In this document: piece after piece, positions 14,727 through 38,542 of the stretch | How positions within the stretch are numbered: position 1 is the first letter of the stretch | Layout of the letters: each line of letters begins with the position of its first letter | DNA from: Betaproteobacteria bacterium | Lineage (GTDB): Bacteria; Pseudomonadota; Gammaproteobacteria; Burkholderiales; JACQAP01 | Direction of reading: 5' to 3' | DNA: 38,542 bases | NCBI GenBank assembly: GCA_031403365.1 | Contig: JANNTE010000127.1 | Span: 1 to 38,542, forward strand | Translations under genes and position numbers: made by a program | The notes under the pieces: model-generated | The model's database searches: none | What the model saw: only the letters and a program-made list of their open reading frames with translations | What the model was told of the DNA's origin: nothing

Positions 14727-14754
14727 GGAGTTTCTCCTTGAACGATTATGCGGA

Positions 14755-15888
14755 TTAACTCTTGGCCGGAGCGGCTCCGGCCGTTGGTGCGGCGGGCGCA
14801 GGCGGCGCGGCGAGCACCGACACTGGCGCACCGTCGCGCAGTTTCATCTGGCCTTCGGTGATGACGATATCGCCGGCGGCCAATCCGGTCAGCACTTCGA
14901 CTTCGCCCGGACGGCGCACACCCAGATCGATACGGGTGAGCGCAGCCTTGCCGTCAACTGCCTTGAAAACAAAGCTGTCCTTGCCCTGCGGCCAGATCGC
15001 GGTTTCCGGCACGATCACCGCATTGGGCCGGTTTTCCAGCGTGACCGCGACGCGCACAAACATGCCGGGCTTGAGTTTGTTGCTGGTATTGGCAATGCGC
15101 GCGCGCATCAGCACCGTACGCGTTCTGTCGTCCACCACCGGTTCGACTGCGTAGACACGTCCGCGGAAATCCTCGCCCGGATAGGAATCCAGACGCAGCG
15201 CGACTTCCTGGTTCTGACGCACCTTGGACATATAGACCTCGGGAATGCGGAAATCGACTTTGATGTTGCCTATGCTCTCCAGCCTGACGATATCGGCTCC
15301 AGCTTTGACATAGGCGCCCGGGCTCACCATGCGCAATCCAACCGTGCCCGCGAACGGTGCGCGTATTAGGGTCTTGGCGACGCGCGACTCGGCCTCGGCC
15401 AGCCGGGCTTGCAGGCGTTCGGTGTTGCCGAGTTGCACATCGAGCGCATCCTTGCTGATGAAATTCTGCTGATGCAGTTCCCGGGTGCGGTCGAGGCGCT
15501 GCGCTTCCGTTTTCAGTTCGGCCCGCACTCCGGCGGACTGAGCTTCGAATTCGCTGCTGTCCAGCGTCACCAGCCGCTCCCCGGCTGCCACGGCCTGGCC
15601 TTCCTTGAAGTGCAATCCGGTGATGCGGCCATCGATCTCCGGGCGGATGATTACCGACTCCTCGGCGAGCAGGGTACCCACGGCGCTAACTTCGTCCGTC
15701 ACATGACCGATGGTGACCTCGACTGCTTTTACTGGAAGTCCCGCATTCGGTTGCGGCACCGGCTTGGCGGCGCCGGGTTTCGGTGCGCCTGCGGTGGAGT
15801 CATTCTTTGAGCCGCAGCCGCTCACAAAAAAACCAGCAATGACAAGGGCTAAAGCAAGAGAAACAATACCTGGAGTCGACTTATGCAC
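14755..15888 (-). CDS. RND efflux periplasmic adaptor (MFP), probable lipoprotein
   Basis: Likely GTG start at 15888 with GAGGT upstream; lipobox-like VSGC; IRPEIDGRI, IRAPFAG, LKPGMFVRV, VEVLTGLAAGD. Confidence 0.93.
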   Translation of the reverse strand: MHKSTPGIVSLALALVIAGFFVSGCGSKNDSTAGAPKPGAAKPVPQPNAGLPVKAVEVTIGHVTDEVSAVGTLLAEESVIIRPEIDGRITGLHFKEGQAVAAGERLVTLDSSEFEAQSAGVRAELKTEAQRLDRTRELHQQNFISKDALDVQLGNTERLQARLAEAESRVAKTLIRAPFAGTVGLRMVSPGAYVKAGADIVRLESIGNIKVDFRIPEVYMSKVRQNQEVALRLDSYPGEDFRGRVYAVEPVVDDRTRTVLMRARIANTSNKLKPGMFVRVAVTLENRPNAVIVPETAIWPQGKDSFVFKAVDGKAALTRIDLGVRRPGEVEVLTGLAAGDIVITEGQMKLRDGAPVSVLAAPPAPAAPTAGAAPAKS

Positions 15889-16027
15889 AGATCTACCTCT
15901 AAACTCGGGGTCCGCAGCCGGCTTCGGGCAGACCTGGTGGGACATAGGCGGCCAGTAAGAATTGGCGCTGGCCATCGGGGCGTTGAACGATTGTTATGGC
16001 ACGATTGCCACAAGCAGCATGTAATTG

Positions 16028-17290: not shown

Positions 17291-17605
17291 ATGTCCTTGG
17301 ATTTAACCGCTGATTCGATGGCCGATAGCAGACGGCCGGTACCGCTGAGCAGCATCGGTATCGGGCAAATCGTCACGGTGTGCGAGGTGCGCACTGGCGT
17401 ACATGAGGCCGAAGGAGGTGACATCGGCCTGCGGCTGCTCGAACTCGGATTTGTGGAGGGCGAATCCCTGCGCGTCATCGCGCACGGTCAGCCGGGAAAC
17501 GAGCCAATTGCGGTGCGCATCGGAAACACCACCTTTGCTCTTCGCCGATTTGAAGCCGACCATGTGCTGGTGGCAACGGCGGCGCATGGGGCAAACCGGC
17601 CATGA
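17291..17605 (+). CDS. feoA: Ferrous iron transport protein A
   Basis: RLLELGFVEG...PIAVRIGNTTFALRRFEA; ATGA overlap with feoB. Start may be 17318. Confidence 0.92.
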   Translation: MSLDLTADSMADSRRPVPLSSIGIGQIVTVCEVRTGVHEAEGGDIGLRLLELGFVEGESLRVIAHGQPGNEPIAVRIGNTTFALRRFEADHVLVATAAHGANRP

Positions 17606-19470
17606 ACGCCGTGTCCGCCTTGCGTGTTGCTTTGCTCGGCAATCCCAATTGCGGCAAGACCGCGTTGTTCAATTTGCTGACCGGCAGCCGGCAAAAGGTC
17701 GCCAACTACGCAGGTGTGACGGTCGAACGCAAGGAAGGCCTGTTTGACACTCCCGAGGGCAAGCGCGTCCGCATCCTCGATCTGCCCGGCGCCTACAGCC
17801 TGAATGCGATCAGCCAGGACGAAACCATTACCCGCGATGTCGTGCTGGGTAACCGGGAGGGCGAAGAGCGCCCGGACTTGCTGATCTGCGTGACCGATGC
17901 CACAAATTTGCGGCTGAACCTCAATCTGGTTGTGGAGGCCAAGCGCCTGGGACTGCCGATGGTGCTGGCCTTGAACATGGCCGATGTCGCGCAACACCGG
18001 GGCGTGCATATCGATGCCGACATGCTGGAGCGCGAACTGGGCATGCCGGTAGTGCGTACCGTGGCGGTGCGGCGTGGCGGTGCGGACGAATTGATCGGCG
18101 CCATAGAGCGCCATCTGTCGGGCCGCCCGCCCGCTGAATCGAAATGGACGGCATCGGACACCGCCGATGTGGCCACGACCCAGCGTGAGGTTCGCCGCAT
18201 CATGACTGCCGCCGTGCGTGAACCGGCGAACGAACTGCGTGTTGACGATGCGATTGACCGCGTTGTGCTGCATCCCTTGTGGGGCTACGTCATTCTGGCG
18301 CTGACGCTGTTCATGATGTTCCAGGCAGTATTCAGTTGGGCGCAGTGGCCCATGGACGCGATCAATGCCCTGGTAGATGCGGCCGGCACACTGCTGTCGA
18401 CCTGGCTGCCCGAGGGCATTCTCCAGAGTTTGTTGGTCGACGGCGTTATCGCAGGCGCGGGCAGCGTGCTGGTGTTTCTGCCGCAAATCCTGATCCTGTT
18501 TCTGTTCATCCTGGCGCTGGAGGATTCAGGCTATCTGCCGCGCGCGGCGTTCATGCTCGACCGCATGATGGGCACGGTCGGGCTGTCGGGGCGCTCCTTC
18601 ATTCCGTTGTTGTCGAGTTTTGCCTGCGCTGTGCCTGGGATCATGGCCACGCGAAGTATCGGCAACTGGCGTGATCGCCTGACCACCATCATGATTGCGC
18701 CGCTGACGACCTGCTCGGCGCGGCTGCCGGTCTATGCCCTGATAATCGGAGCGTTCATTCCGCAACGCACGGTGCTGGGAGTGCTTAACCTGCAAGGCAT
18801 TGTGCTTTTTGCCCTGTACATCGCGGGAATCGTCAGTGCGATGGCGGTGGCCTGGGTTTTGAAGGTCGCTGCCGGACGCAATATCCTGCACCCGCTGTTG
18901 ATGGAGTTGCCGTCTTACCGCTGGCCGAATCCGAGGAATCTCGTCATTGGCCTCATCGAACGGGCGAAAATTTTTCTCACCCGCGTCGGTACCATCATTC
19001 TCTCGCTGACGATCCTGCTCTGGTTTCTGTCCTCGTTCCCGGCGCCGCCGCCGGATGCGACCGGCCCGGCGATCCAGTACAGCGTTGCCGGAATCATCGG
19101 GCGCGCGCTCGAAACTGTGCTGTCGCCGATCGGATTCAACTGGCAGATCTCCATCGCCCTGGTACCGGGGCTGGCGGCACGCGAAGTTGCGGTGGGTGCG
19201 CTCGGAACCGTCTATGCGTTATCGGCGGCCGGCGACGACGTGGCAGCGCAATTGCAGCCGATGATCGCGCAGACCTGGTCACTCGCCACGGCGTACTCCC
19301 TGCTGGCCTGGTTCGTTTTTGCGCCGCAGTGTCTTTCGACGTTGGCAATCGTACGTCGTGAAACCAACTCAATGCGCTATCCACTGATCATGGCGGGCTA
19401 TTTGTTTGCGCTTGCCTATCTGGCCTCGTTCTTGACATTTCGGATTGCCCTCGCGTTAACCGGAGGTTGA
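17602..19470 (+). CDS. feoB: Ferrous iron transporter B
   Basis: G1 GNPNCGKT, G2 NYAGVT, G3 DLPG, G4 NMAD; LEDSGYLPR, SFACAVPGIMATR, gate TM regions. Confidence 0.97.
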   Translation: MNAVSALRVALLGNPNCGKTALFNLLTGSRQKVANYAGVTVERKEGLFDTPEGKRVRILDLPGAYSLNAISQDETITRDVVLGNREGEERPDLLICVTDATNLRLNLNLVVEAKRLGLPMVLALNMADVAQHRGVHIDADMLERELGMPVVRTVAVRRGGADELIGAIERHLSGRPPAESKWTASDTADVATTQREVRRIMTAAVREPANELRVDDAIDRVVLHPLWGYVILALTLFMMFQAVFSWAQWPMDAINALVDAAGTLLSTWLPEGILQSLLVDGVIAGAGSVLVFLPQILILFLFILALEDSGYLPRAAFMLDRMMGTVGLSGRSFIPLLSSFACAVPGIMATRSIGNWRDRLTTIMIAPLTTCSARLPVYALIIGAFIPQRTVLGVLNLQGIVLFALYIAGIVSAMAVAWVLKVAAGRNILHPLLMELPSYRWPNPRNLVIGLIERAKIFLTRVGTIILSLTILLWFLSSFPAPPPDATGPAIQYSVAGIIGRALETVLSPIGFNWQISIALVPGLAAREVAVGALGTVYALSAAGDDVAAQLQPMIAQTWSLATAYSLLAWFVFAPQCLSTLAIVRRETNSMRYPLIMAGYLFALAYLASFLTFRIALALTGG

Positions 19471-21207: not shown

Positions 21208-22632
21208 CTATGCAATGCGCAGCCGCGACCTGGCGCGTGCGATGGCAGCCCGCACCTGGTTGGGCGCAGTGCCGCCGATATGGTCGCGCGCCGCCAGCGA
21301 GCCTTCGAGCGACAACTGGTCGAGCACGTCGGCGTCGATCAGGCTCGCGAACTGTTTCAACTCGTCTATGCCCAGTTGTGCAAGATCAAGGCCTCTGCCT
21401 GCAGCGCTGCGCACGGCACGCGCAACGACCTCATGCGCTTGCCTGAACGGCATGCCTTTCTTCACCAGATAGTCCGCGAGATCGGTTGCCGTGGCGTAGC
21501 CCTCAGACGCCGCTCGGCGCATTGCCTGAGCATCGACGCTGATGCCGCCGATCATGTCCGTGTAGATCCTGAGCGTCGCATTGACGGTGTCCGCAGTGTC
21601 GAACAAGGGCTCCTTGTCTTCCTGATTGTCCTTGTTATAGGCCAGCGGCTGGCCCTTCATCAGAGTAAGCAGGCCCATCAGGTGGCCATTGACACGACCG
21701 GTCTTGCCGCGCACCAGTTCAGGCACGTCGGGATTCTTCTTCTGCGGCATCATCGATGAGCCGGTGCAGAAGCGATCAGCCAGCCGGATAAACCCGAAGC
21801 GGGGATTCATCCAGAGAATCAGCTCCTCCGACAACCGCGACAGGTGCGTCATGAGCAGCGCCGCAGCGGCGCAATACTCAATGGCGAAGTCGCGGTCGGA
21901 TACCGCGTCGATCGAGTTTTCGCAAACGCCGTCGAAACCAAGTTCTTTTGCCACGCGTTCACGATCAATGGGGAATGTCGTTCCAGCGAGTGCGCCTGCG
22001 CCCAGAGGCAGGACGTTGAGCCGCTTGCGGCAGTCCGCGAAACGGGAAGCATCGCGACCCACCATTTCGTAATAGGCCATCAGGTGATGCGCGAAGCTCA
22101 CCGGTTGTGCGACCTGCAAGTGCGTAAACCCAGGCATCAAGGTATGGAGATGTTGTTCCGCGAGATCCAGCAGGCGACTCTGGAAGGCGGCCATGAGGGA
22201 CAACGCATCGTCAATCACGGCACGAAGAAACAGCCGAATGTCGGTGGCCACCTGATCGTTGCGCGAGCGCCCGGTGTGCAGTCGTTTGCCAGCATCGCCG
22301 ACCAGATCCGTCAGGCGTCTCTCGATGTTGAGGTGGACATCCTCAAGATCAATCGACCAGATGAATTTTCCGCTCTGGATTTCATCAGAAATGGCGCCCA
22401 TGCCGCGCTCGATGTCTGCAAGGTCGGTGCTGGACAGCACCCCAACCGCGCGCAGCATGCGCGCATGCGCAAGAGAGCCCTGAATGTCGAACTCCGCCAG
22501 CCTTTTGTCGAAACTGACCGACGCCGTATAACGCTTGACCAGCTCCGCGACCGGCTCGTCAAATCTGCCCGACCAGGTTATGCCATTTTCGGTCTTGCCA
22601 TCTTTGTCTGCCGGTGGTTCCTGTGGTTGCAT
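21208..22632 (-). CDS. argH: Argininosuccinate lyase
   Basis: [35 protein letters not shown], signature [22 protein letters not shown]. Confidence 0.98.
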
Positions 22633-22705
22633 TGAAGCTTGGCCCCGTTCACAATGGAATGCGTTAAATAATTGTTTTCTTGCGTCTTTCGGCGCGTCTG
22701 TAACG

Positions 22706-23719
22706 ATGGCAAGTATAAATCAAAACCCGCGTGCGACTTTGCTGCCGAACTTCGGCAACGTCGGAGCGATACTTCGCATCCTGTTGGTTGTCGCGGCCAT
22801 TACGTTCGGTGCGGCGGCAGTGAAGTCGTTCACCTTGTCCGGAGCACTTGAACAGTGGCTCGCAATTTCTGCATTGGCGCAACCGATCACTATGGTGTCA
22901 TTGCTCGCCCTCGGCGTAAGCAACGCCTGGCTGCACCAACTCGAATATCCGAAGGCGGTCGCTGCAATCCTGTTCCTGGAGATGGTCATTACGATGATCG
23001 TGCTTGTCTTCGGGGCGATGCTGCTTGGCACCGATGTGCGCAACCCCGAGCGCGCGCTGTTGTTTACGGCGGTTGTGAGCGGGCTGCTCCTGGCCTATTT
23101 CAACTTGCGCAACCGCGCGCTTTCGCCGGCCTTGGCGGAAGCCAGACTGCAAGCCCTTCAGGCGCGCATCCGCCCGCACTTTCTATTCAACAGCATTAAC
23201 GCAGTACTGTCGTTGATCCGCGCCGATCCTCGTCGCGCGGAGACTGCGCTCGAGGACATGGCCGATTTGTTTCGCATATTGATGGCCGACAATCGCGATC
23301 TGGCGCCGTTGGAGAACGAAGTCGAATTGTGCCGCCAGTACCTTGCCATCGAGGAACTGCGGCTGGGAGACCGGCTTCAAGTCGAGTGGCATGTGGATAA
23401 AATGCCCGGGAACGCGCTGGTCCCGCCGTTGCTGTTGCAGCCCTTGCTCGAAAACGCGATCTATCATGGCATTGAGCCGTCGATCGAACCCGGTGTGGTC
23501 AGCATCAATATCTATCTTGTTCGCGATCTGGTTCACATGGTTCTCAACAATCCGTATCGCAAGGACGGCAATCACCACTCTGGCAACAAGATGGCCCTGG
23601 GCAACATCCGGGAGCGTTTATCCCTGCACTACGATGCGGAGGCCAGCCTGCAAACCCGAGTGGGTGAAAGAGACTACGAGGTTCACATCACGATTCCGTA
23701 TGTGAAAGCGGACCCATGA
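22706..23719 (+). CDS. algZ: LytS/AlgZ(FimS)-family sensor histidine kinase
   Basis: Four TM segments, H-box [16 protein letters not shown]-box [12 protein letters not shown]. Sits between argH and algR-hemC, as in Pseudomonas. Start placed at ATG 22706. Confidence 0.85.
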
Positions 23720-24489
23720 CCAAACACCCGCAGGCATTGACCGTTGTCATCGTCGATGACGAAACGCCGGCGCGCAGCCGGTTGCGCGACCTTCTGGAAG
23801 ACTGCGCCAGCAGTTTTCCGATCGAGCTTGTCGGAGAGGCGGCCAGCGGAATCGCGCTGCTGGCATTGCTGGAAAAGACGCCGGCGGAAGTGGTGCTGCT
23901 CGATATTCGCATGCCGGAGATGGACGGACTGGAAGCGGCCCGGCATTTGCTGAAGCTTCAGAATCCGCCTTCCGTCATCTTCACCACCGCGTACAACGAC
24001 CATGCTCTTGAAGCATTCGAACTGCATGCGGTGGACTATCTGGTCAAGCCGATCCGGTTGCGGCGTTTGCACGACGCGTTGACGCGGGCCCGCGCCATTA
24101 CCCCGTTGCGGCTCGATGTGCTGCAAAGAATCGCGCCCGAGGCCCGCAAGCATCTTTCCGTTCATGAGCGCGGCAAGGTAACGCTGATTCCGGTGCCGGA
24201 AATCCTCTACCTGCGCGCTGAGCTCAAGTACGTCACGGTGCGCACGGCAGCGGGCGAACATCTGGCGGAGGAATCACTTGCCCGACTGGAGACCGAGTTT
24301 GCCGGTCAATTTGTGCGCATCCATCGTAGCTGTCTCGTGGCGGTGGCGCACATCACCGGTTTCGAGAGACAATCCGGGGAGTTGGGCGAGTCGCACTGGA
24401 CTGTCATGCTGAACGGTCTGGATGAAAAACTGGCGGTCAGTCGCCGCCAGCAACATATCGTCAAGGAGCTCGGGCGTAGTTTGCTGTAA
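23716..24489 (+). CDS. algR: LytTR-family response regulator, AlgR-like
   Basis: VIVDDE, LLDIRMP, FTTAY, DYLVKP receiver motifs; LytTR FVRIHRS and VSRR. Confidence 0.88.
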   Translation: MTKHPQALTVVIVDDETPARSRLRDLLEDCASSFPIELVGEAASGIALLALLEKTPAEVVLLDIRMPEMDGLEAARHLLKLQNPPSVIFTTAYNDHALEAFELHAVDYLVKPIRLRRLHDALTRARAITPLRLDVLQRIAPEARKHLSVHERGKVTLIPVPEILYLRAELKYVTVRTAAGEHLAEESLARLETEFAGQFVRIHRSCLVAVAHITGFERQSGELGESHWTVMLNGLDEKLAVSRRQQHIVKELGRSLL

Positions 24490-28670: not shown

Positions 28671-31448
28671 ATGACGGCCCCGGATCAGAGCGTGCCCGCG
28701 GCCGACAAGGAATCGCCGTTGCGGGAAGATATCCGCCTGCTGGGTCGCATCCTCGGCGATACCCTGCGCGAGCAGGAAGGTGAGGGAATATATGATCTGA
28801 TTGAGCGCACGCGACAGAATGCCATCCGCTTTCGCCGCGATCGTGATCCGCGGGCACGGCAGGAACTCGAGGCCACGCTCAACAAACTCGATCCGGCGCG
28901 TACAGTCGCGGTGGTCAGGGCATTCAGCTATTTCTCGCAACTGGCCAATATCGCCGAAGATCAACACCACAATCGCCGCCGCCGCGCCCATCTGATCGCC
29001 GGATCGGATGCGCAAGAAGGCAGCATGGTGCTGGCGCTGGATCGGGCGAGGGAGAACGGGGTCAGCCCGCAGCGGGTATCGGATTTTTTTTCTAATGCCT
29101 TGATCTCGCCGGTGCTCACTGCGCACCCGACCGAGGTCCAGCGCAAGAGCATTCTCGATTGCCAGCTTGAGATCGCGCGCCTCCTGACCGAACGTGATCG
29201 CATTGTGTTGACGCCGGACGAACGCCTGGCCAACGAAGAATCCCTGCGGCGTGTCGTGTTGACTTTGTGGCAGACGCGCATCCTGCGAGAGCTGCGCCTG
29301 ACCGTGAATGACGAAATTGAGAACGGCTTGTCGTACTACCGCTACACTTTTCTGCGCCAATTGCCCAGGCTCTATGCAGAAGTGGAAGATTTGCTGGAGG
29401 TGCGCAAGCTGGGTGAAATTCGATCCGCGAACTTTCTCAAACTGGGTAGCTGGATCGGGGGTGATCGGGATGGCAATCCTTACGTGACTGACGAGGTCAT
29501 GCGCCAAGCCCTTGGGCGCCAGTTCGCGACCGTGATGGATTTTTACCTTGAAGAGCTGCACCAGCTGGGGGGTGAACTGTCGCAGTCCCTGCGTATCGTG
29601 GTAACCACGCCGGCGCTCGAAGACCTGGCGTCGCGTTCGCCGGATACGTCCGAGCACCGTCGCGATGAACCCTACCGGCGCGCGCTGACCGGAATCTACT
29701 CCCGGCTTACCGCCACTTCGCATGCGCTGGGCCATCGTCACGAACGACCGGCCATTGCGCATGCGCAGCCTTATCGGGACGACACCGAGTTTGCCGCGGA
29801 TCTTGCGACTCTGGCGGACTCGCTGGCCGCCAACGGTTCCCGACGCGTCGCCCGGGGAAGGTTGCGCAATTTGCTGAGGGCTGCGCGAATATTCGGGTTT
29901 CATCTGGCGCCCCTGGACATGCGCCAGCACAGTGGTGTGCACGAACAGGTCGTCGCGGAGTTGTATGCGCTCGGGGCATGCCAGGAAGGTTATGCGCAAC
30001 TCGATGAAAACGGGCGCTGCGATTGGCTGCTGCGGGAACTCAGGTTGCCCAGACTGCTGCGATCCCCTTACCTGAAATACAGCGAGGAAACTGCCAAAGA
30101 GTTGGCCATCCTTGACACTGCCGCCCAGTTGCACATCCGTTTCGGCGCAAAAGCGCTGCCAAATTACATCATTTCCAAGGCCGACGGCGTCAGCGATCTG
30201 CTCGAAGTCGCGCTTCTGCTCAAGGAGGTGGGACTGCTGCGCGCAGGCGAGCACGTGCATTCGCAGGTCAATATCATCCCGTTGTTCGAAACGATAGCGG
30301 ACTTGCGCGGCTGCGGCCCGATCATGGATCGTTTGTTTACGATTCCTCTATACAGGCAATTGCTCGCCAGCCGGGACGGGGCGCAGGAAGTCATGCTGGG
30401 TTATTCGGACAGCAACAAGGATGGCGGATTTCTGACCGCCAACTGGGAGCTGTATAAGGCGGAAGTCGAACTCGTCAAGGTATTCGCCCGTCATGGTGTA
30501 AGGCTGCGGCTGTTTCACGGTCGCGGAGGGTCGGTCGGACGAGGCGGCGGCCCGAGTTACCAGGCCGTGCTGGCACAGCCGCCCGGTAGCGTGGCGGGGC
30601 AAATCCGCATCACCGAGCAAGGCGAGGTCATTGCCAGCAAGTATTCCGATCCGGATATTGGCCGGCGCAATCTGGAGACTCTGCTGGCGGCGACTTTCGA
30701 GGCGACCCTGCTCACGCCCTCTGGCTTCGACCATAGCGACTTCGATCAAAACGCATTTCGCGAAGTCATGGAAGAAATGAGCGCGACGGCATATGCAGCC
30801 TACAGAAAACTGGTCTATGAAACCCCGGGTTTCGAGCAGTTCTTCCGCAGCGCCACGCCCATTGCCGAGATCGCCGATCTTAACGTCGGCAGCCGCCCGG
30901 CTTCGCGCAAGAAGTCCACCCGTATCGAGGACTTGCGGGCGATACCTTGGGTGTTCTCGTGGTCCTTGTCGCGCATCATGCTGCCCGGCTGGTATGGGTT
31001 TGGTGCCGCGGTCGAGGCACTGATCGCGCGTCGCGGCAATGCCGGGATGGATATGGTCAGGCAGATGTACCGGGACTGGCCCTTTTTTCGCACCCTGCTT
31101 TCAAACATGGACATGCTGCTGGCGAAAAGCGATATCGGAATCGCTTCGCGCTATGCGGAACTGGTTGTCGATGTGTCACTGCGGGAAAGCGTATTTGGGC
31201 AGATTCAGGCCGAATGGCATCGTACGGTTGGACATTTGCTGGCAATTACGGGCCAGAGCGAATTACTGGAAGCCAACCCGGCGCTGTCGCGCAGTTTGCG
31301 CAATCGTTCGCCTTATATCGATCCGCTCAATCATCTTCAGGTGGAACTGCTCAGGCGATATCGAGCCGGTGAAAATCAGGAGCGCACCCGGCGCGCCATA
31401 TTGCTGACCATCAACGGTATTGCCGCGGGGTTGCGCAACAGCGGTTAG
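28671..31448 (+). CDS. ppc: Phosphoenolpyruvate carboxylase
   Basis: VLTAHPTE, SWIGGDRDGNP, MLGYSDSNKDGG, FHGRGGSVGRGGGP, LRAIPW, C-terminal GLRNSG. Start placed at ATG 28671. Confidence 0.98.
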   Translation: MTAPDQSVPAADKESPLREDIRLLGRILGDTLREQEGEGIYDLIERTRQNAIRFRRDRDPRARQELEATLNKLDPARTVAVVRAFSYFSQLANIAEDQHHNRRRRAHLIAGSDAQEGSMVLALDRARENGVSPQRVSDFFSNALISPVLTAHPTEVQRKSILDCQLEIARLLTERDRIVLTPDERLANEESLRRVVLTLWQTRILRELRLTVNDEIENGLSYYRYTFLRQLPRLYAEVEDLLEVRKLGEIRSANFLKLGSWIGGDRDGNPYVTDEVMRQALGRQFATVMDFYLEELHQLGGELSQSLRIVVTTPALEDLASRSPDTSEHRRDEPYRRALTGIYSRLTATSHALGHRHERPAIAHAQPYRDDTEFAADLATLADSLAANGSRRVARGRLRNLLRAARIFGFHLAPLDMRQHSGVHEQVVAELYALGACQEGYAQLDENGRCDWLLRELRLPRLLRSPYLKYSEETAKELAILDTAAQLHIRFGAKALPNYIISKADGVSDLLEVALLLKEVGLLRAGEHVHSQVNIIPLFETIADLRGCGPIMDRLFTIPLYRQLLASRDGAQEVMLGYSDSNKDGGFLTANWELYKAEVELVKVFARHGVRLRLFHGRGGSVGRGGGPSYQAVLAQPPGSVAGQIRITEQGEVIASKYSDPDIGRRNLETLLAATFEATLLTPSGFDHSDFDQNAFREVMEEMSATAYAAYRKLVYETPGFEQFFRSATPIAEIADLNVGSRPASRKKSTRIEDLRAIPWVFSWSLSRIMLPGWYGFGAAVEALIARRGNAGMDMVRQMYRDWPFFRTLLSNMDMLLAKSDIGIASRYAELVVDVSLRESVFGQIQAEWHRTVGHLLAITGQSELLEANPALSRSLRNRSPYIDPLNHLQVELLRRYRAGENQERTRRAILLTINGIAAGLRNSG

Positions 31449-31572
31449 CGCTGTTCGCTCGCGAGCGCCGACCCAGCGTCGCACGCGTATCGGTTCCAGT
31501 CCCCCTGCATTTTTCATCCATAAGGCAAGCCAGAACTCGGGCTGGTTGCGCAGTTTTGAACCCAGACCGATC

Positions 31573-31617
31573 GACTTGAAAATGTGATGAATCGCGCGCG
31601 AATCCGGTTTTCAAGTC
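31573..31617. promoter_or_regulatory. 10-bp perfect inverted repeat upstream of the kinase cassette
   Basis: GACTTGAAAA (31573-31582), 25-nt spacer, TTTTCAAGTC (31608-31617). Confidence 0.4.
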
Positions 31618-31767
31618 CTCGGCCGCGAACCTTTGGAGCGCGGCATTAATCAGGTAGTTTTACAAATAATCATATACTTTTGGGGCAAATATCGTACAAT
31701 CTCGAGGCAGATTGCCTTAATTATCTACAAATCAAGGGCTTCGTGCATCCAATCAAGGGCGGATAAG

Positions 31768-34314
31768 ATGAAGAAAGCGGCGGTCTGGAAAGCCGACTGG
31801 TTCCTCGGACTTATCGTGGCGGTGGCGTTGCTTTTTGCTTCCGGCAGTGATCTGGTCCAAAGTCTCGAGCGCTTGGCCTACGACTGGGGCGTTCGCGCAT
31901 CCAGCCATGACCCATCGCCGCGCGTCGCCGTGATAGCCATTGACGACCAGAGCATTGCCAACATCGGACGCTGGCCGTGGTCGCGTGAAGTCCACGCACA
32001 GATGATTGCCAATCTGAAGCAGTCTGGGGCCAAGGTGGTCGGATATGCCTCCTTCTTTTTCGAGCCGCAAATTGATCCCGGCCTGGCCTACGTCCAGAAA
32101 CTGAGCGCGCTCTATTCCGCGATACCCCAGAACGAGAGAGAGAATCTGGCTGAATTTGCGTCTGTGCTTGCAGAGGCGGAAGAAGCGATGAACAGCGATC
32201 GCAAACTGGCCGCCGCCATTTCCGAAGCGGGGAATGTCGCGCTGCCGATGCTGTTTGCCCTGGGGGAACCGCAGGGAAACCCGGACCGTCCTCTTTCAGA
32301 GGATGTTCTGAAGAACCAGATCACAAAAGTGGTGGACCGCATCGGGGCCGGGGACAACAATTTGTTTCCGCTGGCCACGCGACAGGCCGATGCGCCTCTG
32401 GCCGAAATTGCCCACGGTGCGGGCGCCATCGGCCACCTGAACGCGCTGCCCGACATTGATGGCAGTACCCGCACCGAGCCGCTGGTGCTTCGTTACTATG
32501 ATCAGTATTTCCCCTCGTTCTCATTGGTGCTCGCGGCCAGGAGCCTCAACCTCGGTCCCGGCGATATCGAGCTTCGGCTGGGAGAGGGCATCAAAGTCGG
32601 GAATCTGTCCATCGCGACTGATCCCGACCTGCAGATGCACAGCTACTTCTACAAGGACCACGAGGGTGTACCCGCGTTTGCGCTGGACTCTTTCTACGAT
32701 GTGATTTCGGGAAAGATTTCGGCCGACAAGTATCGCGACAAGGTCGTTCTGATCGGCGCAACCGCAGCCGGCGTGGGCACTTATCAGGTGACGCCCATCT
32801 CGGCCGCAATGCCTCCGGTCGTCATTCTTGCGCATTCGGTGTCCAGCATTCTCCAGGAAGATTTCTTCGTCGCTCCGGCATGGGGATTCTGGGTGGAGAA
32901 GCTGACATTTCTTTTGATCGCGCTGTATATCATCTTGATGTTGCCGCGGCTGAACGCGGGGATGGGTTTTGCCGTAAGCGCTGCGTTGCTGGCGGCGATT
33001 CTGGCGACACACTTCGCGTTCATGGCGGGCAAGTTGATGTGGATTCAACTCATGGCATCAGCGGTGCTGCTGGTCATCGGCCACATTCTGTTGACGACCA
33101 AGCGTTTCCTCGTGACTGAGCGCGGCAAAGTCAAGTCGGATCTGGATTCTGCCGAGTCCAATCGCATGCTGGGACTGGCTTTTCAGGGCCAGGGCCAGCT
33201 CGACATGGCCTTCGACAAGTTCAAGAAGGTGCCGCTTGACGACGCGGTAATGGACAACATGTACAACCTCGCCCTTGATTTCGAGCGCAAGCGCCAGTTC
33301 AACAAGGCGCACGCGGTCTACGAGTACATGGCAACCTACAATCCCAAATTCCGCGATCTCGATCAGAAGCTCAATCGCGCCAAACAAATGTCGGAGACCG
33401 TCATCCTCGGCACGGGCGGCGGACGAACCAATGCCAGCACTCTGATCACGGAAGGCGGGTCGGTGGAGAAACCGATGCTTGGCCGCTACCAGGTCGAGAA
33501 AGAACTTGGCAAGGGTGCGATGGGCGTGGTGTACTTGGGCAAGGATCCCAAGATCGGTCGCGTAGTTGCGATAAAGACCATGGCGCTGTCGCAGGAATTC
33601 GAGGCTGACGAATTGGAAGAAGTGAAGCAGAGGTTTTTCCGTGAGGCGGAAACCGCGGGCAGACTGAACCATCCGAACATCGTGACGATTTATGACGCCG
33701 GCGAAGAGCATGATCTCGCCTATATCGCCATGGAGTTCCTGAAAGGAAAGGACCTGGTGCCGCAGACCAAGCAGCCCGCACTGTTGCCGCTGCCCATGGT
33801 GCTTTCAATCGTGGCGCGAGTCGCGGATGCGCTTTCCTATGCGCACTTGCAGAGTGTGGTTCATCGCGACATCAAGCCGGCAAACATCATGTATGACCCG
33901 CAGTCCGATTCCGTAAAAGTGACCGATTTCGGCATAGCCCGGATTACGGATTCGTCGAAGACCAAAACCGGAATGATCCTCGGCACACCTTCCTATATGT
34001 CTCCGGAGCAACTGGCAGGCAAAAAAATCGAAGGTCAATCGGACTTGTTTTCGCTGGGAATTACGCTATATCAGCTGTGTTGCGGCAGTCTGCCGTTTCA
34101 GGGGGAATCGATGACGCAGTTGATGTTCAAGATCGCCAACGAACCACCGATCGACATTCTTGGCATCAATCCCGACTTGCCGCCGTGCGTGGTGGCCGCT
34201 ATTAACAAGGCGCTCGCCAAGAATGTGGCGGAGCGATATCAAAGCGGTGCCGAATTCGCGCAGGCCGTTCGCGACTGTGCGGCCCAGTTTGATACCGTGG
34301 ACGTTCCTCTCTAG
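31768..34314 (+). CDS. CHASE2 sensor - TM - TPR-like - Hanks-type Ser/Thr protein kinase
   Basis: CHASE2 (IAIDDQS...GRWPWSR, DGSTR, KVVLIGATA), three TMs, TPR-like helices, kinase GKGAMGVV, VAIK, HRDIKPAN, DFG, GTPSYMSPEQ. Start placed at ATG 31768. Confidence 0.95.
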   Translation: MKKAAVWKADWFLGLIVAVALLFASGSDLVQSLERLAYDWGVRASSHDPSPRVAVIAIDDQSIANIGRWPWSREVHAQMIANLKQSGAKVVGYASFFFEPQIDPGLAYVQKLSALYSAIPQNERENLAEFASVLAEAEEAMNSDRKLAAAISEAGNVALPMLFALGEPQGNPDRPLSEDVLKNQITKVVDRIGAGDNNLFPLATRQADAPLAEIAHGAGAIGHLNALPDIDGSTRTEPLVLRYYDQYFPSFSLVLAARSLNLGPGDIELRLGEGIKVGNLSIATDPDLQMHSYFYKDHEGVPAFALDSFYDVISGKISADKYRDKVVLIGATAAGVGTYQVTPISAAMPPVVILAHSVSSILQEDFFVAPAWGFWVEKLTFLLIALYIILMLPRLNAGMGFAVSAALLAAILATHFAFMAGKLMWIQLMASAVLLVIGHILLTTKRFLVTERGKVKSDLDSAESNRMLGLAFQGQGQLDMAFDKFKKVPLDDAVMDNMYNLALDFERKRQFNKAHAVYEYMATYNPKFRDLDQKLNRAKQMSETVILGTGGGRTNASTLITEGGSVEKPMLGRYQVEKELGKGAMGVVYLGKDPKIGRVVAIKTMALSQEFEADELEEVKQRFFREAETAGRLNHPNIVTIYDAGEEHDLAYIAMEFLKGKDLVPQTKQPALLPLPMVLSIVARVADALSYAHLQSVVHRDIKPANIMYDPQSDSVKVTDFGIARITDSSKTKTGMILGTPSYMSPEQLAGKKIEGQSDLFSLGITLYQLCCGSLPFQGESMTQLMFKIANEPPIDILGINPDLPPCVVAAINKALAKNVAERYQSGAEFAQAVRDCAAQFDTVDVPL

Positions 34315-34327
34315 TTTGGCGGCCAAC

Positions 34328-35152
34328 ATGAGCCTTAGTACCGCACTCGAGATTGTCAAGGCGACTCACACCGGGATGGTGCGTTCGCACAATGAAGACA
34401 GCATCGCCACTGACGCCGAAATCGGTCTCGCGATTCTGGCCGACGGCATGGGGGGTTATAACGCGGGTGAGGTCGCCAGCGGCATTGCGACGGCACTGAT
34501 ATCGAGCGAAACCCGAGAGGCGCTTGTGCGCGTCGATCCGCACGAAATGGACGCGGCGACCGGCAACGTTGTTGCGCACAAGCTTCTCGCGGACATTGTC
34601 GCCAAGGCCAACACATCTATTTTCAACGCGGCCAACAGCCAGCCCCAATACTCCGGCATGGGTACGACGCTGGTGGTTGCATTGTTCTGCAACAATCAAC
34701 TCACGGTTGCACACATCGGCGATTCGCGCTGCTATCGGCATCGCGGCGGCAAGCTGGAGGCGGTAACCCGCGACCACTCGCTGCTGCAGGAGCAGATCGA
34801 TAGCGGCCTGATTACAAAAGAAGCGGCACGACGATCCCAGAACAAGAATCTGGTAACGCGTGCACTGGGTATTGAGCCAACCGTCGATACCGAAGTCCAT
34901 TCCTATCCCGTGCAGGAAGGCGACATATACTTGATCTGTTCGGACGGCCTGAACGACATGGTTGAGGACGATGACATCGAAATGACGCTCGGCGCGCTCG
35001 GAGCGAATCTTCCACTCGCCGCCGAGCAATTGGTGCAGATGGCGAACGACAACGGCGGCCGGGATAACGTATCGGTTGTGCTTATCAAAGTGAAAAAGGA
35101 CTTTCCCGCGGACGAAAGTTTGTTTGCAAAGTTCTTTTCCTGGTTCAAATAG
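34328..35152 (+). CDS. PP2C-family (Stp1/PrpC-like) Ser/Thr phosphatase
   Basis: GMVRSHNED, LADGMGG, MGTT, HIGDSR, TRDHS, CSDGL, GGRDN. Start placed at ATG 34328. Confidence 0.95.
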   Translation: MSLSTALEIVKATHTGMVRSHNEDSIATDAEIGLAILADGMGGYNAGEVASGIATALISSETREALVRVDPHEMDAATGNVVAHKLLADIVAKANTSIFNAANSQPQYSGMGTTLVVALFCNNQLTVAHIGDSRCYRHRGGKLEAVTRDHSLLQEQIDSGLITKEAARRSQNKNLVTRALGIEPTVDTEVHSYPVQEGDIYLICSDGLNDMVEDDDIEMTLGALGANLPLAAEQLVQMANDNGGRDNVSVVLIKVKKDFPADESLFAKFFSWFK

Positions 35153-35164
35153 AGGAAAGCGGCT

Positions 35165-35974
35165 ATGGCGAAGTTGATATTGAGTCTGGACGGTCAGTTG
35201 ATCAAGGAGTTCGCGCTTAGCAAGGAGCGAACTTCCATCGGACGCAAACCTCACAACGATATTGCGATCGACAATTTGGCTGTGAGTGGCGAGCACGCCG
35301 TCATCATGACGATTCTCAACGATTCCTTCCTCGAAGATCTGGGAAGCACCAACGGCACCCTGATCAACGGACAGGCGGTCAAGAAACATTTTCTGCAGAA
35401 CGGCGATACGGTGGAGATTGGAAAATACAAGTTGAAGTATGTAAACGAAGCGCCGGCCACCCTGAATCAGGATGAATTCGAGAAAACCATGGTTCTGAGG
35501 GCACCTCCGGCCGCAGCGGTCCGAAAGCCGGAGGTCAAGAATCTTGGCGACACCCAGACAAATATTCCGGCGATACCCGGAATCAGCAACGCGGCCGTCA
35601 CGACTCAGCCTGGGATGAGCGCAGGCGCTTCGACGGGTCCGACGCCCGCGACGCCCGCGAAACCCGCAAGCCCGCCTGTTGCCACCGCTGCGGCTGCGAC
35701 GGGTTCGGGCGCAGGGGGTACCCTCCAGATACTTTCCGGGCCGAATGCAGGCAAGGAAATGCCGCTAGCGAAGCCCTTGACGACACTGGGAAAGCCAGGC
35801 GTTCAAGTTGCGGTAATTGCCAAGCGTCCGCAGGGCTATTTCCTGACCCACGTCGAAGGCGGCAACTTCCCGGTGGTTAATGGCAAGACGCTCGATGCCC
35901 AAGCGTATCAGTTGGGCGATCACGACATCATCGAACTGGCGGGAGTCAAAATGGAGTTCTTTCTCAAGGCCTGA
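35165..35974 (+). CDS. FHA-domain protein with P/A/T-rich linker and a second, degenerate FHA-like domain
   Basis: IGRKPHND, AVSGEHA, DLGSTNGT; C-terminal domain TTLGKPG...VNG...LGDHDIIELAG; AGGA RBS. Confidence 0.92.
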   Translation: MAKLILSLDGQLIKEFALSKERTSIGRKPHNDIAIDNLAVSGEHAVIMTILNDSFLEDLGSTNGTLINGQAVKKHFLQNGDTVEIGKYKLKYVNEAPATLNQDEFEKTMVLRAPPAAAVRKPEVKNLGDTQTNIPAIPGISNAAVTTQPGMSAGASTGPTPATPAKPASPPVATAAAATGSGAGGTLQILSGPNAGKEMPLAKPLTTLGKPGVQVAVIAKRPQGYFLTHVEGGNFPVVNGKTLDAQAYQLGDHDIIELAGVKMEFFLKA

Positions 35975-36076
35975 GGACTCCAAGGCGTCCAATCTCGAGC
36001 GGATCGACTTCAGAAAAGCAATGGGATCGTACGCCCGTAGTTGGCTTTCGGCGTGCGACACTCTGTGGGAGGTCCA

Positions 36077-38299
36077 TTGAAGAAGCACCTGTTGCGCGTC
36101 GTTCTGGGCCTTGCGGTGGTCCTGGCGTTTGCGGGGCATGCCGCCAAGTACTACAAAATCCCATTCATCGACCGGCTCGAAAACATTGTTTACGACGCGC
36201 GTCTGCGCCTGACGCTGCGAGACAGCGTGGACCCACGCGTAGTGATCGTCGACATTGACGAGAAAAGCCTCGCCGCCGAAGGCCGCTGGCCGTGGCGGCG
36301 GGATAAACTTGGCATCCTGCTCGACCAGTTATTCGACCATTACAAAGTAGGAATAGTCGGGTTCGACGTTTTTTTTACCGAACCTGACGAGAGCTCCGGA
36401 CTGGAGATTCTGCAGCAATTGAGCCGGGCGGAGTTGAAAGGTGACGCCCTGTTTCAGGCGGTCCTGAAGGACGTTGCACCGCGCCTCGAATACGATCGTG
36501 TGTTCGCGGAAAAGCTGAAGAACCGGGCGATCGTGCTCGGATACTACTTTTCCGACGTTCAATTGGAAGATGGGAAAGGGCTGGCGTCCGGTGCTCTTCC
36601 CGATCCCGTGCTTCAAGCCGGTACATTCAAGGGCAAGAACGTCTCGTTTACCAGTTGGGCCGGCTATGGCGCCAATTTGGAGGAATTTCAGAAAGCGGCC
36701 GCGGGCGCGGGCCACGTCAATGCCTGGCCAGACGACGACGGAGTGACCCGTCGCGTCCCGGTCCTCGCCGAGTACAAAGGCGGCTACTACGAGTCCTTGT
36801 CGATGGCAATGGTCAGGTTGGGCCTGGGTCTGCCGTCAGTCGTGCCGGGGTTCTCGGGGCAAAAGTCGAAGGACTACCCCGGGCTCGAGTGGGTAGAAAT
36901 GGGAGATGTGAGCATACCGGTTGACGATATCGTTACTGCGCTTGTTCCCTATCGAGGCAAGCAAGGCAGCTTTCGATACGTGTCAGCTACCGATGTACTG
37001 AAAGGGGCCGTGCCGCGTGATGCACTTGAAAACAAGATAGTGCTGGTCGGCACCACAGCGCCGGGCCTTTTTGACCTGCGCGCGACGCCGGTCGCCAAGG
37101 TTTATCCCGGGGTTGAAATCCATGCCAACATGATCGCAGGAATGCTTGATGGCAACATAAAAAAACGACCGGCTTACGTACTGGCCGCGGAAATTCTGCT
37201 GCTGTTGTTTGCCGGCATCGCCATGGCGATGCTGTTGCCCCTGATCAATCCTTTGCGCGCCACGATCCTGACGATCGTGGTATTCGTGGCGGTGTTTGCG
37301 ACCAATTTCCTGGTGTGGACGCAGGGAGGCCTGGTGCTTCCCCTGGCATCCGGTTTGCTGATGGTGGCGATGATCTTTGCTCTGAACATGTCCTATGGCT
37401 TCTTCGTCGAGTCGCGGGCAAAACGTCAGATTACCGGTTTGTTCGGACAGTACGTCCCGCTCGAACTGGTCGATGAAATGAGCAAGAATCCGGAATCTTT
37501 CTCCATGGAGGGAGAGAGCCGTGATCTAACCGTCCTGTTTACCGACGTGCGCGGATTCACCACGATTTCCGAGGGCATGGATCCGAAAGCATTGTCCAGT
37601 CTGATGAACGAGTTCCTCACGCCATTGACGCGAATTATTCACAAGAATCGCGGCACCATCGACAAGTACATGGGCGACTGCATCATGGCCTTCTGGGGCG
37701 CACCGCTCGCCGATCCCCATCATGCCCGCAACGCGGTCATTGCCGGGATGGAAATGCAACGCGCCCTCGACGAGCTGCAGCCAAAATTCCTGGACAAAGG
37801 CTGGCCGCCGATTCTGATCGGAGTCGGGGTGAACAGTGGCCGGATGAGTGTGGGCAACATGGGCTCGGAAATCCGGCTGGCATATACGGTAATGGGAGAC
37901 GCCGTAAACCTTGCTTCACGCCTTGAGGGCATTACCAAGCAATATGGAGTCGGCATGATCGTCGGCGAAACCACCCGCGCCCAAGTGCCGGAAGTCCAGT
38001 TTCGCGAGCTTGACCGGGTCAAAGTTAAGGGCAAGGACGCCCCGGTCGCCATCTATGAGCCGCTCGGATTGGTTGATTCGCTGTCCCCGGACATTTCGAA
38101 TGAGTTGAAAATCTGGGTTCAAGCGCTCAGGCTGTACCGGGCCAGAGACTGGGATATGGCAGAATTGCAGTTGATCAATCTGATTAAGCTGGCCCCGGAT
38201 CGGGGTTTATACAAGCTGTTCCTTGAGCGCTTGGCGCATTTGCGCAAGAACCCGCCCGAACAGGGCTGGGACGGTTCCTGGAAATTCGAAACCAAATAG
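36077..38299 (+). CDS. CHASE2-domain class III adenylate cyclase
   Basis: CHASE2 (VDIDEKS...GRWPWRR), three TMs, cyclase LFTDVRGFT, DKYMGD, YTVMGDAVNLASRLEG, VKGK. Likely TTG start at 36077 after GGAGG. Confidence 0.93.
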   Translation: MKKHLLRVVLGLAVVLAFAGHAAKYYKIPFIDRLENIVYDARLRLTLRDSVDPRVVIVDIDEKSLAAEGRWPWRRDKLGILLDQLFDHYKVGIVGFDVFFTEPDESSGLEILQQLSRAELKGDALFQAVLKDVAPRLEYDRVFAEKLKNRAIVLGYYFSDVQLEDGKGLASGALPDPVLQAGTFKGKNVSFTSWAGYGANLEEFQKAAAGAGHVNAWPDDDGVTRRVPVLAEYKGGYYESLSMAMVRLGLGLPSVVPGFSGQKSKDYPGLEWVEMGDVSIPVDDIVTALVPYRGKQGSFRYVSATDVLKGAVPRDALENKIVLVGTTAPGLFDLRATPVAKVYPGVEIHANMIAGMLDGNIKKRPAYVLAAEILLLLFAGIAMAMLLPLINPLRATILTIVVFVAVFATNFLVWTQGGLVLPLASGLLMVAMIFALNMSYGFFVESRAKRQITGLFGQYVPLELVDEMSKNPESFSMEGESRDLTVLFTDVRGFTTISEGMDPKALSSLMNEFLTPLTRIIHKNRGTIDKYMGDCIMAFWGAPLADPHHARNAVIAGMEMQRALDELQPKFLDKGWPPILIGVGVNSGRMSVGNMGSEIRLAYTVMGDAVNLASRLEGITKQYGVGMIVGETTRAQVPEVQFRELDRVKVKGKDAPVAIYEPLGLVDSLSPDISNELKIWVQALRLYRARDWDMAELQLINLIKLAPDRGLYKLFLERLAHLRKNPPEQGWDGSWKFETK

Positions 38300-38301
38300 C
38301 A

Positions 38302-38542
38302 ATGCAAATCAGGATTCTCGGTTGCAGCGGGGGCATTGGTGGAAATTTGCGCACGACCTCCATGCTGCTTGACAGCGATGTGCTGGTCGATGCAGGCACC
38401 GGCGTCGGTGATCTTGGCATAGACGAGCTGCTCAGGATAGATCACGTGTTTCTGACACATTCCCACCTTGATCACATTACCTCGCTGCCGTTTCTGGTGG
38501 ATACGGTGGGCCCGATGCGGGACGCGCACCTGACAGTTCATT
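38302..38542 (+). CDS. Metallo-beta-lactamase-fold 3',5'-cyclic-nucleotide phosphodiesterase (class II-like); runs off the right edge
   Basis: Hand translation: MQIRILGCSGGIGGNLRTTSMLLDSDVLVDAGTGVGDLGIDELLRIDHVFLTHSHLDHITSLPFLVD. Has the THxHxDH motif, starts 2 nt after the cyclase stop, and is absent from the ORF track. Confidence 0.85.
   Translation, partial: MQIRILGCSGGIGGNLRTTSMLLDSDVLVDAGTGVGDLGIDELLRIDHVFLTHSHLDHITSLPFLVDTVGPMRDAHLTVH

Follow-up and report, generated by a model that had tools for sequence, protein, structure and literature searches.

CHASE2 kinase and cyclase genes in a conserved betaproteobacterial locus with a GAF-bearing PilB-like ATPase, a possible target of cyclic AMP

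Control of PilB/MshE-type assembly ATPases by a second messenger is established for cyclic di-GMP (c-di-GMP), and the known routes by which cyclic AMP (cAMP) reaches pili run through transcription factors. In Pseudomonas aeruginosa the Pil-Chp/CyaB/cAMP-Vfr pathway controls type IV pili, and in Synechocystis motility is controlled by Cya1, which combines an FHA domain with a class III cyclase; both act mainly through CRP-family transcription factors. Here we describe a betaproteobacterial locus, the domain families of which are all known, in which by contrast the predicted receptor domains are on a motor ATPase and an HD-GYP protein and the FHA domain is on a separate protein. Its first five genes, encoding a CHASE2 receptor Ser/Thr kinase, a PP2C phosphatase, an FHA protein, a CHASE2 class III adenylate cyclase and a probable phosphodiesterase (PDE) of the metallo-β-lactamase (MBL) fold, lie at the right-hand end of a 38,542-nucleotide stretch of DNA (the window), which is the whole of contig JANNTE010000127.1 (C127) in the 467-contig assembly GCA_031403365.1 of Betaproteobacteria bacterium (genome G000).

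MshE of Vibrio cholerae and the c-di-GMP-gated PilB ATPases of several species resemble the predicted motor in having an N-terminal second-messenger-sensing domain on a PilB/GspE-type ATPase (PMC5013675). Unlike MshE, the ATPase here is without the c-di-GMP motif, a GAF domain of the cyclic-mononucleotide type precedes its MshEN-like segment, and the messenger would be cAMP, with both its production and its breakdown encoded by the neighbouring genes. The PpkA/PppA/Fha proteins of type VI secretion systems (T6SS; PMC3953482, PMC5995506) are similar in being a jointly encoded set of Hanks-type kinase, PP2C phosphatase and FHA reader by which a machine in the membrane is controlled at the post-translational level. 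In the present locus, however, the sensor is CHASE2, the FHA protein falls under the cut-off of the T6SS model, and the linked genes encode a type IV pilus-type ATPase and a pilin. Mycobacterial/corynebacterial GarA and OdhI, which act with PknB/PknG and PstP (PDB 6I2P, 4QCJ, 2KB3), are small FHA phospho-switches found beside a Hanks-type kinase and a PP2C, and are the closest structures to the N-terminal FHA domain studied here; by contrast with GarA/OdhI, a conserved threonine (T108) is present close after the FHA domain rather than before it, there is a second, degenerate FHA domain, and the context is not metabolic.

With regard to the cyclic nucleotide genes, CyaD1, CyaD2 and CyaK of Sinorhizobium meliloti, which act with Clr, have the same architecture of CHASE2 and class III adenylate cyclase (PMC13001267). 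Whereas the read-out there is a CRP-type transcription factor, the locus here has GAF-fused enzymes, a dedicated predicted PDE and a kinase triad alongside. The best sequence matches of both GAF domains are those of Anabaena CyaB1/CyaB2 and mammalian PDE2/5/10 (1YKD, 1MC0, 3LFV), but here the predicted cyclic nucleotide monophosphate (cNMP)-binding GAF domains sit on a PilB-like ATPase and an HD-GYP protein, not on a cyclase or a class I PDE. That an FHA domain can govern a nucleotide second messenger by reading phosphothreonine has a precedent in Bdellovibrio DgcB (PDB 6HBZ, 6HC1), an FHA-GGDEF protein that its own tail activates once phosphorylated; there, however, FHA domain and cyclase are one protein and c-di-GMP is the messenger, and in the present case any such coupling is hypothetical. 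The new elements would thus be the cyclic-mononucleotide GAF on a PilB/MshE-type ATPase, the linkage of the latter to a CHASE2 cyclase/PDE pair, and the attached CHASE2 Hanks-kinase triad. No paper on this cluster or on a GAF-fused PilB was found in open-access PMC/bioRxiv full text, subscription papers being outside the search; within that scope, an earlier note on this DNA, which knew of no characterized example, is borne out.

The genes of the locus, with window coordinates for those on C127 and gene order for those continuing on contig C277 of the same assembly, are as follows.

31449..31767: ppc-kinase intergenic region, forming the cluster's left border; it is rich in AT at about 31650-31740
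31768..34314, + strand: receptor Ser/Thr kinase gene, 848 aa (CHASE2 and Pkinase, Pfam)
34328..35152, + strand: PP2C (PPM) Ser/Thr phosphatase gene, 274 aa (PP2C_2, Pfam; Stp1/IreP, NCBIfam)
35165..35974, + strand: two-domain FHA protein gene, 269 aa (FHA, Pfam; alignment; AlphaFold2 model)
36077..38299, + strand: CHASE2 class III adenylate cyclase gene, 740 aa from TTG 36077 (CHASE2 and Guanylate_cyc, Pfam)
38302..38542, + strand: gene for the probable MBL-fold PDE, first 80 codons of 254 aa (Lactamase_B, Pfam, 31.6 bits)
C277, after the MBL gene: ATPase of the PilB/GspE type, 796 aa, with an N-terminal GAF domain (within residues ~1-200) followed by MshEN-like and T2SSE regions
C277, after the ATPase gene: GAF-HD-GYP phosphodiesterase, 545 aa (HDCGK and HHERMDGKGYP)
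C277, after the HD-GYP gene: type IV prepilin, the gene being ended by the contig end

The open reading frames (ORFs) and Pfam matches bear out what had been proposed for the window, namely five co-directional genes of these families, all on the + strand, separated by 13, 12, 102 (or 66) and 2 nt. The contig ends within the MBL gene; the final 96 nt of the window recur at 98% identity on C277, where the remainder of the gene is present (L096:294-911). The join of the two contigs is real, because a genome of the same genus, G218, has all eight genes contiguous (L098), with protein identities of 89-97% (71% for the pilin). The locus is therefore one of CHASE2-kinase, PP2C, FHA protein, CHASE2-cyclase, MBL PDE, GAF-PilB-like ATPase, GAF-HD-GYP and type IV pilin genes. 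The best reading, to which we give an even chance, is that the five genes do the sensing for a conserved locus that comprises eight genes or more, the likely target of which is a type IV pilus motor bearing a GAF domain of the cyclic-nucleotide type.

In the scheme that we propose, a periplasmic cue perceived by the CHASE2 domain of the membrane cyclase would lead this enzyme to make cAMP, which the MBL enzyme encoded next to it would degrade. The cAMP would be read directly by the GAF domains fused to the pilus/secretion-type assembly ATPase and to the HD-GYP c-di-GMP phosphodiesterase, such that the locus would set type IV pilus assembly, and probably the c-di-GMP level, post-translationally. 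The kinase, the PP2C that opposes it and the two-domain FHA protein would then constitute a second, phosphothreonine input joined to the cAMP module. We infer that cAMP is the GAF ligand, that the pilus is the output and that there is cross-talk between the two arms. In its fullest form the proposal is of a PilB-type motor gated directly by cAMP, in which the GAF domain replaces the MshEN c-di-GMP site, the CHASE2 cyclase/PDE pair controls supply, the triad adds a phosphothreonine input to the motor or to cAMP turnover, and the GAF-HD-GYP protein couples cAMP to c-di-GMP; this fuller form is tentative, and we would not call it probable.

The assignment of the cyclase is as follows. Its CHASE2 and Guanylate_cyc (PF00211) regions score 203.3 and 72.9 bits (Pfam cut-offs 26.3 and 21.9, respectively), and the motifs FTDVRGF, DKYMGD and YTVMGDAVNLASRLE can be read in the translation. 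The residues include what we take to be the metal-binding Asp, the adenine-specifying Lys and Thr/Asp, and the transition-state Asn and Arg; by the PF00211 model and these catalytic residues the protein is, as judged from sequence, a class III adenylate cyclase. A pairing of Lys with Thr, as found here in DKYMGD and YTVMGD, is typical of adenylate-specific class IIIb cyclases. The best PDB matches of the catalytic domain are likewise adenylate cyclases, i.e. 6FHT (1.2e-38) and P. aeruginosa CyaB 3R5G (1.5e-34).

The product of the MBL gene is probably a cyclic-nucleotide PDE. Its HSHLDH motif is in the part encoded in the window, HxHxDH being invariant among orthologues, and its length is 254 aa in most of 112 orthologues, the full-length proteins being 45-83% identical to that of G218. 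An AlphaFold2 model of the G218 orthologue (predicted local distance difference test score, pLDDT, 97.1) gave Foldseek matches to Bacillus subtilis YhfI, the yeast class II cAMP phosphodiesterase PDE1 (4OJV, TMq 0.82), RNase Z and the phage cyclic-nucleotide nuclease Apyc1. The part on C277 matches PDEase_II (PF02112) with 51.2 bits against a cut-off of 23.7, spanning only profile positions 87-148 of 340, and the NCBIfam cyclic-nucleotide PDE model is matched at 36.3 against a cut-off of 400. It is because the PDEase_II match covers the metal-motif region only that the assignment is termed probable rather than proven. In one related locus (L111) the PDE is seemingly a remnant of ~100 aa.

The GAF domains of the two predicted effectors are both closest to cNMP-binding GAF domains, and cAMP is their presumed ligand. 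For the ATPase the best PDB match is the cAMP-binding tandem GAF of Anabaena CyaB2 (1YKD, 2e-24), followed by PDE2A; for the HD-GYP protein the best are PDE5 (1.3e-15), CyaB2 and the GAF-HD-GYP protein PmGH, PDE10 also being among the GAF matches. As scored with the orthologues in the related locus L007, the ATPase belongs to the PilB/GspE superfamily (T2SSE, PF00437, 382.9 bits) and retains a segment with an MshEN-like fold (Pfam MshEN, 40.7 bits), and the HD-GYP protein belongs to PF13487 (145.6 bits against 27.2). The pilin in L007 matches Pfam Pilin and N_methyl, in type IVa style, and a Wzy_C gene follows it.

MshEN domains that bind c-di-GMP have a tandem 24-residue motif, RLGxx(L/V/I)(L/V/I)xxG(L/V/I)(L/V/I)xxxxLxxxLxxQ, of which a relaxed form is also given (PMC5013675). 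Neither the strict nor the relaxed form is present in the GAF-ATPase; binding of c-di-GMP by its MshEN-like segment is accordingly rejected, and the GAF domain thus becomes the candidate sensor. A paralogue in the same genome, a 569-aa PilB/MshE-like ATPase on contig C210 (L088:1216-2922, minus strand), the gene for which adjoins a PilC/GspF-like gene, has two canonical copies of the MshEN motif, the first from residue 11, so that the genome holds assembly ATPases of both the c-di-GMP type and the GAF type. A GspDEF set is encoded elsewhere in the genome, as are a TfpB-type ATPase and a further ATPase resembling PilB. PilQ is present above its family cut-off, together with several PilT-family ATPases; thus a type IV pilus machine exists for the ATPase and pilin of the locus.

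In the kinase a periplasmic CHASE2 domain with transmembrane segments is connected through a short helical linker to a Hanks-type kinase domain at the C-terminus. The Pfam scores are 179.2 bits for CHASE2 (residues 16-388, cut-off 26.3) and 181.1 bits for Pkinase (PF00069, residues 574-792, cut-off 31.7), and LGKGAMG, VVAIK, HRDIKPAN, DFG and SPE are readable in the translation, such that both model and motifs place it among the Hanks-type Ser/Thr kinases. The phosphatase matches PP2C_2 with 57.9 bits and the NCBIfam Stp1/IreP equivalog NF033484 with 242.8 bits, i.e. above the cut-off of 230, and contains RSHNED, DGMGG, GDSR, SDG and RDN. On direct reading of the translations the catalytic motifs are intact, as the earlier note had it.

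Both receptors, kinase and cyclase, belong to the CHASE2 family (PF05226), with transmembrane segments after the domain. Their CHASE2 modules are collinear; since they are merely 27% identical over 442 aa, the cues need not be the same, and two different cues would seem as likely as a single one. We know of no ligand for CHASE2.

The FHA protein, which is without an N-terminal extension (the FHA domain begins at residue 1-2), scores 74.6 bits with Pfam FHA (PF00498, cut-off 20.7), contains GR, SGEH and STNG, and thus belongs to the family of phosphothreonine readers. In an alignment of 55 orthologous sequences the pocket residues G26, R27, S41, H44, S61, T62 and N63 are invariant; a (D/E)FEKTMVLR motif with a nearly invariant Thr108 follows directly after the N-terminal domain, and a variable Pro/Ala-rich linker then leads to a strongly conserved C-terminal domain (~184-268). 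The AlphaFold2 model has two confident β-sandwich domains, both with pLDDT above 90 (mean 81.5). The best Foldseek matches of the first are the FHA domains of GarA/OdhI (36% identity). Comparison of the second with the profile of the first by hhalign gave a probability of 95.5% (E 1.5e-8), and the C-terminal domain is, by sequence comparison, a degenerate FHA domain without the Ser-x-x-His loop and phosphothreonine-pocket residues. The GarA/OdhI equivalog NF041660 is matched at 65.2 bits, under its threshold of 200. By analogy, the protein is most likely a GarA/OdhI-like phospho-switch or adaptor: the kinase would phosphorylate a threonine that the N-terminal domain reads, and the pseudo-FHA domain would hold a constant partner. 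A complex prediction for the FHA protein with the PDE scored 0.00 against a mark of 0.32, which gives no evidence for or against their interaction.

The combination of kinase, PP2C and FHA protein is itself that of the threonine-phosphorylation pathway of the PpkA/PppA/Fha1 type, and the FHA protein does match the T6SS FHA model TIGR03354 weakly (41.6 bits). This score is, however, far under the cut-off of 120.25; no match to the TssC/VipB family was obtained in the 99.56%-complete genome, and the annotated loci showed no T6SS gene adjoining the cluster. The T6SS reading is thus rejected, its probability being close to negligible, and the view that the cluster is not a standard T6SS module is upheld.

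Conservation of the locus was assessed by a cyclase-anchored scan of one genome per species, which gave at least 597 confirmed relatives, of which the best 80 loci were taken. All are betaproteobacterial (Gallionella, Sideroxydans, Sideroxyarcus, Ca. Ferrigenium, Nitrosomonadales, and Burkholderiales metagenome-assembled genomes). The five genes occur in the same order and on the same strand in 61 of the 80, confirming the proposed co-conservation of the five-gene order, and the GAF-ATPase gene is present too in 55 of these 61. The other 19 loci are mostly cut by contig ends, and three of them keep the triad and cyclase without the PDE. Across loci, where all genes are on one strand, the median gaps are 13, 26, 80, 16, 122 and 42 nt.

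These results bear on the proposal of the earlier note that the five genes are a self-contained cassette, in which one cue would be converted into both threonine phosphorylation and cAMP. Effectors, e.g. a CRP-type regulator, would on this view be encoded elsewhere. The co-conservation of the five genes and the use of CHASE2 by both receptors fit such a cassette, as do two loci (L129, L137) that keep the five genes without the ATPase or HD-GYP gene. But beyond position 38542 both C277 and most related loci carry likely effectors, i.e. the GAF-PilB-like ATPase, the GAF-HD-GYP protein and the type IV pilin, directly downstream; moreover the CHASE2 domains are divergent, and the cyclase and the triad can each be absent. 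The self-contained form of the proposal does not survive this, and one cue with effectors elsewhere is now distinctly unlikely.

Additional genes can be present within the cluster. In 40 loci of the Sideroxydans/Sideroxyarcus/Gallionella type a gene for a protein with cNMP_binding and rhodanese domains lies between those for the PDE and the ATPase; it is absent from this position in the genome of the window, and can be represented by the following.

L012:13045-14115: cNMP_binding and rhodanese protein, 356 aa, a further cyclic-nucleotide receptor in the cluster

In G125 two genes, for a FecR-like protein of 585 aa and a TPR/SlipAM-like protein of 449 aa, lie between those for the PDE and GAF-ATPase (L107:5667-8773). 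In G013 the match to the kinase orthologue is split into four, in different frames, within an otherwise complete cluster (L115:13608-15468), which suggests that the kinase gene there is frameshifted or decaying.

An even sample of the order (401 genomes; thresholds E<=1e-60 for the cyclase and E<=1e-100 for the kinase) gave a cyclase match in 188 genomes and a kinase match in 130, or 186 and 128 of 399 when the unpublished G205 and G379 are left out. Of 40 regions fetched around cyclase genes of this sample, 21 contain all five genes, then in nearly all cases the ATPase and HD-GYP genes; three more are cut within the kinase gene, nine have the cyclase alone, four or five the cyclase and PDE, and one (L127) the cyclase, PDE, ATPase and HD-GYP genes without the triad. 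The cyclase and PDE genes therefore remain adjacent even where all other cluster genes are missing. The full cluster is present in at least 22 family codes, and its carriers in the order include several complete genomes, such as G034, G335 and G242. In 17 further regions, which were fetched since their kinase orthologue is not beside a cyclase found in the sample, three have the triad followed directly by the PDE and ATPase genes, with or without HD-GYP; three have the triad, PDE and HD-GYP; two the triad, a divergent cyclase, the PDE and a pilin; one the triad and PDE only; one the triad and a pilin only; six the kinase alone; and one is cut. This co-occurrence points to the PDE or cyclase, or the pilus machinery, as candidate targets of the triad.

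A sample of 401 genomes from the whole class contained a relative of the GAF-ATPase in 14 besides the window's own, with 26-34% identity in the N-terminal part, and in six of seven such regions fetched the ATPase is alone. In G749, from another order (L159), the cyclase, HD-GYP, PDE and GAF-ATPase genes are within 17 kb; no triad is present in this 17-kb cluster, and none in 11 kb of sequence preceding the cyclase. A FastTree tree was built from 69 cyclases (those of the order sample and of every third locus among the 80; midpoint root for drawing only). In it the triad-linked cyclases form two starred clades, one of 7 rows and one of 48, within which three unlinked rows are nested, and the stand-alone and cyclase+PDE forms lie outside them. 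The tree fits an old, mostly vertical linkage. Because cyclase+PDE and triad each occur without the other, the triad looks like an accessory input, not an inseparable half. Our reading is that the cyclase, PDE and GAF effectors would be the older core, which the triad may have joined within this order, with mostly vertical inheritance thereafter.

The same modularity is what would be expected if the triad and the cAMP module were two independent neighbours, the triad having its own target elsewhere and there being no biochemical cross-talk. Consistent with this are the cyclases (with or without PDE) that occur without a triad in 14 of the 40 regions, the cAMP genes with GAF-ATPase but no triad in L127 and in the other order, the lone kinase orthologues, the low identity of the two CHASE2 modules, and the FHA-cyclase gap, which, with its median of 80 nt, is the largest within the five genes. 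By contrast, where the triad is present it is directly upstream of the cyclase, or of the PDE if the cyclase is missing, on the same strand and with short gaps; the PDE is present in all triad loci with enough downstream sequence, except L147; the triad-linked cyclases form large clades; and linkage across so many family codes usually reflects shared function. Independence of the two arms is hence unlikely in our view, though it is the alternative to be taken most seriously.

Several points weigh against the proposed cAMP- and phosphothreonine-controlled pilus motor. The triad may act on something other than the cAMP arm, because there are loci with triad and PDE (with or without HD-GYP) but no cyclase, one with triad and pilin only, and six lone kinases. 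The PDE, a probable one, is assigned by its fold, its genomic neighbours and the HxHxDH motif; the match to PDEase_II is of only ~60 residues, and RNase Z is among the closest folds. The ligand specificity of a GAF domain is not readable from sequence, and cGMP or another ligand is possible. The ATPase misses the equivalog cut-offs of both PilB (TIGR02538, 491.5 against 675.65) and GspE (TIGR02533, 451.6 against 630.25), there are four other PilB/GspE-family ATPases in the genome, and the filament that the GAF-ATPase would serve is proposed from the neighbouring pilin only. The 102-nt FHA-cyclase gap could hold a separate promoter. Lastly, the model as a whole is a prediction from sequence, as is co-transcription of the genes.

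Related to these points is the alternative that the effectors belong to a filament of the type II secretion system-like or other non-pilus kind, or that the GAF domains bind a ligand other than cAMP, in which case cAMP might act via the cNMP-binding/rhodanese protein or a CRP-type regulator. The similar scores of the ATPase on the PilB and GspE models, below both cut-offs, are in keeping with this, as are the lack of a platform protein or secretin gene in the locus and the separate cNMP_binding protein in 40 loci. On the other hand, the neighbouring gene encodes a prepilin in type IVa style, with the Wzy_C gene that follows it in L007 resembling a pilin-glycosylation gene; a bona fide GspDEF set is found elsewhere in the genome; and both GAF domains are nearest to cNMP-binding ones. 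A non-pilus filament or non-cAMP ligand is consequently improbable.

If the proposed pilus motor reading is right, the locus would be a unit for the post-translational control of pili by cAMP and phosphothreonine across many chemolithotrophic betaproteobacteria, iron oxidizers included. The locus predicts a directly testable cAMP-gated motor and a link from cAMP to c-di-GMP through the GAF-HD-GYP protein, and the triad would be a case in which a Hanks-kinase pathway, outside actinobacteria and T6SS, is connected to signalling by cyclic nucleotides. The presence of two CHASE2 receptors and a visible output in one locus could help in finding the CHASE2 ligand. Carriers include Gallionellaceae and Sideroxydans iron oxidizers, for which attachment and motility are ecologically central.

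As regards the borders and signals of the cluster, housekeeping genes (hemCDXY and ppc) lie upstream of the kinase gene, other genes being in this position in related loci (in L007, for DUF1330 and a GT4 glycosyltransferase); the cluster therefore begins at the kinase gene, and 31449..31767 is its probable promoter region. A consensus scan found no sigma-70-like site in that region. A promoter/terminator scan gave a single promoter-like site, within the coding sequence of the cyclase, and 14 weak terminator-like sites where 7.0 were expected, with no convincing promoter or terminator between the genes; an Rfam scan of 31000-38542 gave no match at E<=0.1. The cyclase ORF is open from TTG 36041, which would reduce the gap after the FHA gene from 102 to 66 nt. 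TTG 36077 is the probable start, because GGGAGG is present 5 nt upstream of it and orthologues mostly align from residue 10-13 of the longer ORF.

Nucleotides 1-291 of C277 (L096), which contain an open frame of 79 aa, stand in place of the window sequence that precedes the 96-nt overlap in the PDE gene. No match to them was found elsewhere in the genome, in the fetched loci or in Pfam, and they may stem from a branch in the assembly graph, from a strain variant in which the PDE gene has an insertion, or from a chimeric end of the contig.

The remainder of the window includes a LytS-type histidine kinase (His_kinase, PF06580) and LytTR response regulator pair upstream of hemC (22535-24489). 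The LytS/LytTR pair, followed by hemCDXY and ppc, is ordinary context that is not kept beside the cluster in other genomes. Also ordinary are an RND efflux pump (AcrB family, 1079 aa) with its HlyD-type adaptor, on the minus strand at 11592-15975, and a FeoB ferrous iron transporter, on the plus strand at 17602-19470.

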